Assembly: GCA_944351415.1 (NCBI GenBank)
Contig: CALVPQ010000002.1
Coordinates: forward strand, 801-64,800
Reading direction: 5' to 3'
Source: an uncultured Clostridia bacterium
GTDB taxonomy: Bacteria > Bacillota > Clostridia > Christensenellales > UBA1242
DNA length: 64,000 nt
A model generated the notes under the pieces. That model saw nothing but the letters and a program-made list of their open reading frames with translations. It was not told the origin of the DNA and ran no database searches. Position numbers and translations under genes: made by a program. Positions 4,344 to 5,807 of the stretch are shown one piece after another; positions within the stretch are counted from its first letter, which is position 1; each line of letters begins with the position of its first letter.

Positions 4344-4381
4344 ATAAAAAAAGATGTGCTAAATTTAACACATCTTTTTTT
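4344..4381. terminator. bidirectional terminator shared by tsf (+) and the antisense cassette (-)
   Basis: Stem AAGATGTG/CACATCTT flanked by an A-run on one side and a T-run on the other. The stop codon of the minus-strand ORF sits at 4380. Confidence 0.7.
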
Positions 4382-4709
4382 ATTCAATAACAGATAATTT
4401 AAAATCGCCCATCGTAATATTATTTTTTGCAATTTTTATAAGCCTTTCCCAATCATTATCATTTTTGTCTATTTTACAAATTTCTATAACGTCTCCACGG
4501 TTGTGGTCAATCCACATTTTAAAGTCCATAAAAAGTTCTGTTGATTTTAAATTTTTTGAATTATATAAATGATAGTCAAGCAATCCTAATGTTTTCCTTT
4601 TTGCAATCTTTTCGTTTTCTATATATGAATTATAAATATATTCTTTTTTTGTGGATTCATATTCTAGTTGTCCTAACGACAAGTTTCTATAGTTGTAAAC
4701 CAGCTTCAT
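4380..4709 (-). CDS. small protein (109 aa), HipS-like / HipA N-terminal-subdomain-like (inferred)
   Basis: ATG at 4709 is preceded by GGGAGG at 6-nt spacing, inside the 3' end of the kinase gene (23-nt overlap). N-terminus KLVYNYRNLSLGQLEYESTKKEYIYN resembles the HipA N-terminus KLVTWMNNQRVGELTKLANGAHTFKY. The maximal ORF extends to 4760. Confidence 0.55.
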   Translation of the reverse strand: MKLVYNYRNLSLGQLEYESTKKEYIYNSYIENEKIAKRKTLGLLDYHLYNSKNLKSTELFMDFKMWIDHNRGDVIEICKIDKNDNDWERLIKIAKNNITMGDFKLSVIE

Positions 4710-5763
4710 TAATTTCCTCCCATTTTGCTTGTTCTTTTGTTCGTTTTTCAACTTTTTCACATAAGAATTGACTTCGTAACTTAAATATCAAATTTGCTTG
4801 GTCTTTTAATAGTTGAGGTAATGGTCCATATTTTTTTTCTGTATTTTTAAAAGCTTTAGCGAGTGTTTCATTTTCTAATGCAAAATTTTCAAAAAGAAAA
4901 TCCTGCAACTCTTTTGACTCGGCTATCATATCAATTACTTCGTTATCTATAGTTTCCATTAATTCTTTGGTTAATTTGAATTTTATTGTTCTTTTTGGAT
5001 TCGACATATCAATATCTGAAGTCGCTGTATGAATACCTAATGCAACCGACTTAGATAATAATAACTCATTTAAGTATTTTATTTTGTTTTTGTTATGTAA
5101 AACAGCATATTGATGTTTTATAACATTTTCTCTATGATTCCAACAAAATATATCTCCATTATCAAATAGGGGAGTCATAAAAAACTTTCCACTTTCTTCA
5201 TCATAAAGAAAAGATATATTATACCAATTTCTATCTGATTGTGCCGTAAGATAATCAAGAATATACATCTTTTTTAGTTGGAGCATTATTTCATCTATAT
5301 CAATAGAAATATCTTCTGTTAGATTTGCAAAACATATTAATGCTTTTTCATAATTATCCAAAGTATTTTTTGCAGAATATTGTTCTTCATTAAAATTATC
5401 ATACATAAAATTTTTTAGGAACTCTAACAAGGAATATCCTGAAAATTCCATGTATTCATTAGGATTATAATTTTTTGACATTACTCCATTATAATCCCTA
5501 TCGTTAGCCCGGCATACACTAGGGACATACTCAACACAGGGAATATCAATAATTTTACAAAGTTCATAAAAAACAACTTCTCCAATATCTTCAAAAGTTA
5601 TTGTTTCCCCAGTGCTGTCTCGATTAGTTTTTTTAAATAACCACTTTTCATCTGGTTTATCTTTGAATGAAAACCACATTTTATCCCTTGCTCCACGTAA
5701 TTCAGTGGTATAAAAAATAAAATCTTCATTCTTAGATGTTAAATCAATAATTTTTCTTTCCAT
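4687..5763 (-). CDS. HipA-family (HipT-like, N-terminally short) Ser/Thr kinase
   Basis: Gly-rich loop LRGARDKMWF near residue 23. Catalytic motif SDRNWYNISF (cf. HipA TDGHAKNFSV). Mg-binding motif TPLFDNGD (cf. TPFYDII). Confidence 0.7.
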   Translation of the reverse strand: MERKIIDLTSKNEDFIFYTTELRGARDKMWFSFKDKPDEKWLFKKTNRDSTGETITFEDIGEVVFYELCKIIDIPCVEYVPSVCRANDRDYNGVMSKNYNPNEYMEFSGYSLLEFLKNFMYDNFNEEQYSAKNTLDNYEKALICFANLTEDISIDIDEIMLQLKKMYILDYLTAQSDRNWYNISFLYDEESGKFFMTPLFDNGDIFCWNHRENVIKHQYAVLHNKNKIKYLNELLLSKSVALGIHTATSDIDMSNPKRTIKFKLTKELMETIDNEVIDMIAESKELQDFLFENFALENETLAKAFKNTEKKYGPLPQLLKDQANLIFKLRSQFLCEKVEKRTKEQAKWEEINEAGLQL

Positions 5764-5778
5764 AATACTCTCTTTATT

Positions 5779-5807
5779 ATTATATGATATTTATTTTATT
5801 AAGTCAA
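5779..5807 (-). promoter_or_regulatory. consensus sigma-A promoter of the kinase cassette
   Basis: On the minus strand: TTGACT, 17 bp, TATAAT. Only 15 nt separate the -10 from the ATG at 5763, so the leader would be very short. Confidence 0.6.

Follow-up and report, generated by a model that had tools for sequence, protein, structure and literature searches.

Organization of the locus

The window examined here is a stretch of 64,000 nucleotides, corresponding to forward-strand positions 801-64,800 of contig CALVPQ010000002.1; all coordinates refer to positions within it. It contains a cassette of two genes, both located on the minus strand between tsf and frr. The first gene (positions 4687-5763, minus strand) encodes a protein of 358 amino acid residues, a HipA/CtkA-superfamily Ser/Thr kinase-like protein without N-subdomain 1. 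The second, small gene (positions 4380-4709, minus strand) encodes a HipS-like protein of 109 residues with the predicted fold of HipA N-subdomain 1. The cassette is a new and highly diverged member of a known but uncharacterized kind of Hip module, with an organization of the hipJS type.

The small open reading frame (ORF) overlaps the kinase gene by 23 nucleotides, its start preceding the stop codon of the kinase. Its Shine-Dalgarno sequence GGGAGG, as read from the sequence (positions 4716-4721, minus strand; CCTCCC on the plus strand), lies within the 3' end of the kinase gene, 6 nucleotides upstream of the ATG of the small ORF. A GGAGG-type site is found before the small ORF in most of the orthologues with a correctly placed start. 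The sequence TTGACT-17-TATAAT (positions 5779-5807, minus strand) precedes the kinase gene; it agrees with the consensus at 11 of 12 positions, and its -10 element ends 16 nucleotides before the kinase ATG. The orthologous loci compared keep TTGAC[A/T]-17-TATAAT directly ahead of the kinase start, even where protein identity falls to 40%. The sequence around the box diverges among these loci while the position of the box is constant, and the element can be recognized as one conserved, predicted promoter of the sigma-70 type.

At the other end of the cassette, a hairpin of 42 nucleotides with flanking A- and T-runs (positions 4343-4384, both strands) overlaps the stop codon of the small ORF. 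Its minimum free energy is -15.9 kcal/mol on the plus strand and -21.5 kcal/mol on the minus strand, with z-scores of -7.2 and -8.7, respectively. In shape it is terminator-like, resembling a bidirectional intrinsic terminator that would be common to tsf and the cassette.

The convergent left neighbor is tsf (positions 3673-4326, plus strand; Pfam EF_TS), which encodes EF-Ts, and the divergent right neighbor is frr (positions 5968-6534, plus strand; Pfam RRF), which encodes the ribosome recycling factor. No helix-turn-helix (HTH) gene of the HipB or HipR type adjoins the cassette, the flanking genes being tsf and frr both in the window and in the orthologous loci of the clade. The G+C content of the cassette is 27.1%, compared with 28.9% for the window. 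In one species, frr and the kinase promoter are separated by an additional inserted ORF of roughly 300 codons (locus L019, approximately 4960-5850).

The kinase

The kinase carries three HipA-family motifs: LRGARDKMWF (residues 22-31), SDRNWYNISF (residues 176-185) and TPLFDNGD (residues 197-204). The Gly-rich loop, R23-G24-A25-R26-D27-K28 (positions 5680-5697, minus strand), is located between two strands of the N-lobe in the model described below. Because this loop occupies residues 23-28, N-subdomain 1 of HipA is absent. The invariant catalytic loop Q175-S-D177-R-N-W-Y-N182 (positions 5218-5241, minus strand) is paired by hhalign with GTDAHAKN of HipA, and the Mg-binding motif P198-L-F-D201-N-G203 (positions 5155-5172, minus strand) with APLYD. 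In this comparison with a HipA alignment, QSDRNWYN and PLFDNG are in register with GTDAHAKN and PLYD at an E-value of 0.023, over 49 columns only. The residues R23, G24, R26, K28, D177, N179, N182, P198, D201 and G203 are unchanged in all 14 of the kinase homologues, and the orthologues range in length from 342 to 363 residues. The activation loop was not identified in the kinase.

A preliminary description of this DNA had reported a 358-residue ORF with three HipA-family signatures, a Gly-rich loop near residue 23 with loss of the HipA N-terminal subdomain, a 109-residue ORF starting in the last 23 nucleotides of the kinase gene behind GGGAGG, a consensus promoter belonging to the cassette and no HipB-like HTH gene. 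All of these features are present as described.

It is important to consider how the kinase can be assigned to a family. The protein from the window has no match to HipA_C (PF07804) in Pfam even at E<=10, the NCBIfam scan was empty, and searches of the PDB with the kinase as a single sequence and as a profile gave nothing relevant. HipA_C is matched by six of the 14 kinase orthologues, the best at 4e-7. When 1.84 billion representatives were searched with the profile, 743 relatives of the kinase were found at E<=1e-3. One of them, P0042, which matches the kinase family profile at 8e-52, scores 38.0 bits against HipA_C, where the cut-off is 30.5; the relatives P0045 and P0079 likewise exceed the Pfam gathering threshold of HipA_C. 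The profile comparison with HipA_C, which the preliminary description had looked to for a family assignment, thus succeeds through these relatives and fails for the window kinase itself.

The structure of the kinase was modeled with AlphaFold2 (AF2), with a mean predicted local distance difference test (pLDDT) score of 89.8 and a predicted template modeling (pTM) score of 0.90. When the model was compared with the PDB by Foldseek, the top match was CtkA from Helicobacter pylori, with an E-value of 2e-8 and template modeling (TM) scores of 0.55-0.72. It is followed by HipT (7ab5) and HipA (3tpv and 3dnt) with TM scores of 0.35-0.5, and the match probability is 1.00 throughout, CtkA included. 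Among the 30 PDB matches at E<=1e-3, 29 are CtkA, HipT, HipA or the bacterial Ser/Thr kinase 7vkc, the sole exception being TORC1 at rank 28. Comparison with viral structures gave only generic matches of the phosphatidylinositol 3/4-kinase type. Membership of the kinase in the HipA superfamily is solidly established through its relatives and its fold, and the catalytic core of this short HipA/CtkA-superfamily Ser/Thr kinase is intact.

The Gly-rich loop can be compared with the serine autophosphorylation switch of HipA (Ser150) and HipT (Ser57). The equivalent position in the kinase, set by the register of the GxQxK and GxRxK motifs and not by a residue-level structural alignment, is G-3. It is occupied by Asp or Glu in every one of the 14 kinase sequences, Glu21 being the residue of the window kinase; G-1 is an invariant Arg. 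With an acidic residue at the position of the switch serine and the invariant Arg, the serine switch is probably not used in this kinase.

Among the relatives, P0107, P0112, P0126, P0127 and P0162 are 530-540 residues long and consist of an N-terminal kinase domain followed by about 300 more residues. Pfam detects only HipA_C in them, with no HIRAN match at E<=0.01. They may be HipL-like fusions.

The HipS-like protein

The small protein gave no match to Couple_hipA or to any HipA family in the Pfam and NCBIfam scans. Searches of the PDB with the single sequence and with the profile returned nothing relevant, and an hhalign comparison of the small-protein alignment with the HipA alignment gave no signal. 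At 109 residues the protein is too short to contain a HIRAN domain.

The AF2 model of the protein, built with 26 homologues, has a mean pLDDT of 94. The top 22 PDB matches found with this model by Foldseek are all HipS or HipA N-subdomain 1, with TM scores of 0.42-0.66; they include HipS chains 7vkb_B, 8ezr_A and 7ab3_E/B and the isolated HipA N-subdomain 1 in 7czo. The model shows that the small protein is predicted to have the fold of HipS and of HipA N-subdomain 1. The resemblance of its N-terminus to HipA, proposed in the preliminary description, is borne out by the fold and is not above chance in the sequence. Of the two approaches considered there for this protein, the Couple_hipA profile finds nothing, and structure prediction with Foldseek gives the HipS/HipA N-subdomain 1 fold.

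Homologues of the small gene are also seen apart from a kinase gene. The distant homologue P0040 (E-value 7e-8) occurs at positions 5267-5623 of locus L021 and 5257-5613 of locus L022, where neither flank has a called kinase gene, and only 4 nucleotides separate the end of its gene from a gene for type III glutamine synthetase that follows. The homologue P0037 (locus L024, positions 695-1057) has no kinase gene called upstream and is followed by an uncharacterized ORF that is cut by the contig end.

Conservation and genomic context

The orthologous loci comprise L001-L010, on contigs reached through five homologues, and L011-L020, from 10 GTDB species representatives. All are metagenome-assembled genomes of uncultured Clostridia or Firmicutes, and the kinases are 40-100% identical. 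Every orthologous locus recovered has the same gene order: in the direction of cassette transcription, frr on the opposite strand, the kinase gene and the small gene, and then tsf and rpsB, again on the opposite strand. In addition, every contig that carries an identical Frr and reaches far enough upstream contains the cassette. The module had been regarded as accessory in the preliminary description; its presence in one slot at all of these loci contradicts that view.

Measured against the closest species, the kinase gene has a ratio of nonsynonymous to synonymous substitution rates (dN/dS) of about 0.12 and the small gene one of about 0.05, with dS saturated. The substitution pattern of both genes indicates purifying selection. 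The possibility that either is a chance ORF was ruled out by conservation and dN/dS. Evolution is nevertheless far more rapid in both genes than in the neighboring ones: relative to L011, the kinase has a dN of 0.147, and the values for tsf, frr and uppS are 0.002, 0.031 and 0.063, respectively.

The pairing of a kinase gene with a small gene after it was found again in two unrelated contexts. At locus L023, a kinase of 389 residues (25% identity, E-value 5e-19) is followed by the small homologue P0034, and a gene for an SMC_N/AAA-type ATPase is located just upstream of the kinase. At loci L105 and L106, the kinase P0042 is followed, with an overlap of 4 nucleotides, by a small homologue of 105 residues (5e-20), and the pair is adjoined by Band_7/zinc-ribbon genes. 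As judged by sequence comparison, the kinase gene and the small gene form a real unit.

The rpsB-tsf-pyrH-frr cluster is nearly universal. In the outgroup loci that extend past tsf (Tsf 51-66% identical), the next gene is mostly pyrH, and the full order rpsB-tsf-pyrH-frr-uppS is present in 29 of the outgroup loci. Three outgroup loci have frr directly after tsf, with no cassette. In the window and in the flanks of L001-L020, the stretches to which the search was confined, pyrH was not found. A scan of metagenomes with Tsf for members of the clade without the cassette gave outgroups only, with Tsf identity of at most 66%. The cassette has one notable feature: it is fixed throughout the clade in the slot between tsf and frr, the place of pyrH in outgroups.

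In the species of the window, metagenome contigs are repeatedly broken within the loop of the hairpin at positions 4343-4384. Some strains have an insertion in this loop, with an apparent duplication of the 5 nucleotides TAAAT and imperfect inverted ends TTAAAACGGAC...AAAAAGAGAG; the junctions were seen after tsf in L109 and L115 and after the small ORF in L002 and L119. The insertion looks like an element of the miniature inverted-repeat transposable element (MITE) or insertion sequence (IS) type, and it was not found in the window or in viral contigs. Because many contigs break just after tsf, strains without the cassette were considered. They were ruled out: the alternative haplotype is the insertion in the terminator loop, and the cassette is still present beyond it.

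Elsewhere in the window, positions 9445-11055 encode a protein of 524 residues in which the only domains are an OB fold and an RNase_T-type exonuclease domain. The same protein is present in all of the relatives. It is located between rseP and rimP, a place usually taken in Firmicutes by polC, proS and dxr.

Comparison with known Hip systems

The organization of the cassette can be compared with that of two Hip modules described earlier. In hipJS, a short kinase is followed by HipS downstream, with no HTH gene; hipIN is organized in the same way with a HIRAN domain added (Gerdes et al. 2021, PMC8262856). The defense candidate PDC-M03 consists of a HipA protein and a HIRAN-domain protein (PMC13245101), and because of this annotated domain content it corresponds to hipIN. 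The partner in the present cassette has only the HipS domain and no HIRAN, and the organization is therefore of the hipJS type. The preliminary description had taken the locus for a HipA divided into a kinase and, after it, an N-domain, in an order not described before. The division is supported at the level of the fold; the order, however, is the one already reported for hipJS (PMC8262856).

Only two hipJS modules have been reported, and they were compared with the cassette by their description. The cassette and hipJS have in common a short kinase in which N-subdomain 1 is missing and the Gly-rich loop is close to the N-terminus, a second gene after it that encodes a HipS-like domain only, and the absence of HipB. 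The cassette differs in that its kinase is too diverged for detection by Pfam HipA_C and in its fixation within the clade in a slot among core genes.

The likeness to hipIN and PDC-M03 lies in the gene order and in sequence matches to the PADLOC profiles. Residues 17-216 of the kinase match PDC-M03A at 3e-19, and three of the small-protein orthologues match PDC-M03B weakly (2e-4 to 3e-3) at positions of approximately 16-104 of 248, that is, in the N-terminal 100 or so positions. The partner in the cassette is different in having no HIRAN domain and only 109 residues, against a profile of 248 positions. A link of the kinase to clade XI, which holds hipJS and hipIN, is suggested by proxy through the PDC-M03A match.

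HipBST from E. coli O127 and L. pneumophila also has HipA divided into a core kinase and a protein resembling N-subdomain 1. The model of the small protein superposes on the HipS chains of 7ab3, 8ezr and 7vkb, and that of the kinase matches HipT. However, the order is reversed, the kinase preceding the HipS-like protein in the cassette in contrast to hipB-hipS-hipT, and HipB is absent. The kinase has Asp or Glu together with Arg where HipT has autophosphorylation sites of the Ser57/Ser59 type, and no sequence similarity between the two systems is detectable.

CtkA (JHP0940; PDB codes 3akj, 3akk and 3akl) is, like the kinase of the cassette, a compact HipA-like kinase without N-subdomain 1, and it is the top structural match. 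The identity between them is only 13-16%, with no match at the sequence level. HipBA from E. coli K-12 is similar in the register of the catalytic and Mg-binding motifs, in fold class and in the correspondence of the small protein to N-subdomain 1 of HipA. It is different in that HipA is a single chain of 440 residues, while the cassette has two genes, no HipB and no equivalent of Ser150.

Interpretation of the cassette

We propose that the cassette is a bicistronic hipJS-type toxin-antitoxin or defense-like kinase module that has become vertically fixed, and we assign this interpretation a probability of roughly 0.6. Its toxicity, neutralization and target we infer by analogy. In HipBST the kinase is kept from its active conformation by HipS, which is bound alongside the Gly-rich loop (PMC10627512). 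The small protein of the cassette could similarly dock on the N-lobe of the kinase next to the Gly-rich loop and keep the kinase inactive. The strong GGGAGG of the small gene, compared with the weak ribosome-binding site of the kinase gene, would place the partner in excess. If phage infection or stress led to loss, titration or displacement of the partner, the kinase would be set free to phosphorylate an essential component of translation and growth would be arrested. The known targets of HipA and HipT are aminoacyl-tRNA synthetases. The kinase would act without autophosphorylation at the switch position of HipA Ser150 and HipT Ser57. The module may have been acquired once in a clade of uncultured gut Clostridia, in a tsf-frr slot without pyrH, and inherited vertically since.

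Several observations weigh against this interpretation. Fixation of the cassette in the same slot, without patchy distribution and with no anomaly in G+C content, is unusual for a toxin-antitoxin or defense unit. A tblastn search of phage and plasmid records with the kinase and a pattern scan of viral contigs gave no relatives. The kinase, with 358 residues, is longer than HipG, HipI, HipJ and HipM (279-321 residues), and about 140 residues at its C-terminus are outside the PDC-M03A match. The small protein has no HipS signal at the sequence level, and the E-values of its Foldseek matches are weak (best 3e-3), with no other fold ranking above HipS and HipA. In addition, the description of clade XI, with hipJS and hipIN, gives no results on toxicity, neutralization or substrate (Gerdes et al. 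2021, PMC8262856).

The main rival, in our ranking, is a domesticated core regulator, in which the small protein would be an obligate N-subdomain supplied in trans and the holo-kinase would tune translation or growth as a housekeeping function. A single slot shared by the 10 species representatives, whose kinases are 40-100% identical, and a promoter kept in place are what such a regulator would show, as are the presence of the cassette on every sufficiently long contig with an identical Frr, the purifying selection on both genes, the native base composition and the embedding of the module among rpsB, tsf and frr. There is also a precedent for a Hip module conserved within a lineage, in a HipBST system reported to be conserved across Legionella species (PMC10653801). 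However, both genes evolve much faster than their neighbors, as the dN of 0.147 for the kinase against 0.002 for tsf illustrates; homologous pairs occur elsewhere in unrelated contexts; the family has been modeled as a defense candidate in PADLOC; and the location among translation genes may be a coincidence. We consider domestication of this kind rather unlikely. A related reading, in which a captured HipA-like kinase and a HipS subunit acting in trans make up a vertically inherited core regulator of translation in the pyrH-less slot, and not a mobile toxin-antitoxin or defense unit, is about equally unlikely.

The cassette might also be a purely selfish addiction module, kept between two essential genes because its loss kills the cell and of no benefit to the host. 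Its toxin-antitoxin-like architecture, its position between essential genes and its fast evolution would agree with this. However, it is rare for addiction by itself to hold catalytic residues invariant and a promoter constant over lineages so diverged, and this explanation appears quite improbable. It is hardly credible that the kinase-fold protein phosphorylates a nucleotide or another small molecule and so replaces the missing uridine monophosphate (UMP) kinase PyrH: the cassette does sit exactly at the pyrH position of most outgroup loci extending past tsf, and no pyrH is seen in the window or in the flanks of L001-L020, but in fold and motifs the protein belongs with the protein kinases HipA, HipT and CtkA, nucleotide metabolism offers no role for a partner resembling HipS, the cassette runs on the opposite strand, these incomplete genomes may simply have pyrH elsewhere, and three outgroup loci have neither pyrH nor the cassette between tsf and frr.

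Significance

The hipJS-type kinase module proposed here belongs to a superfamily part of which is missed by the Pfam models HipA_C and Couple_hipA, and the missed part is recovered by comparison of folds. The hipJS/hipIN (PDC-M03) kind has had no experimentally tested module so far, and the cassette family offers a compact and well-defined test pair for it, in which the models are confident, the catalytic core does not vary and the regulatory serine is replaced by an acidic residue. The fixation of the cassette throughout a clade, within a cluster of core translation genes, also provides a natural case for asking whether a Hip-type kinase module can become a stable function of its host.

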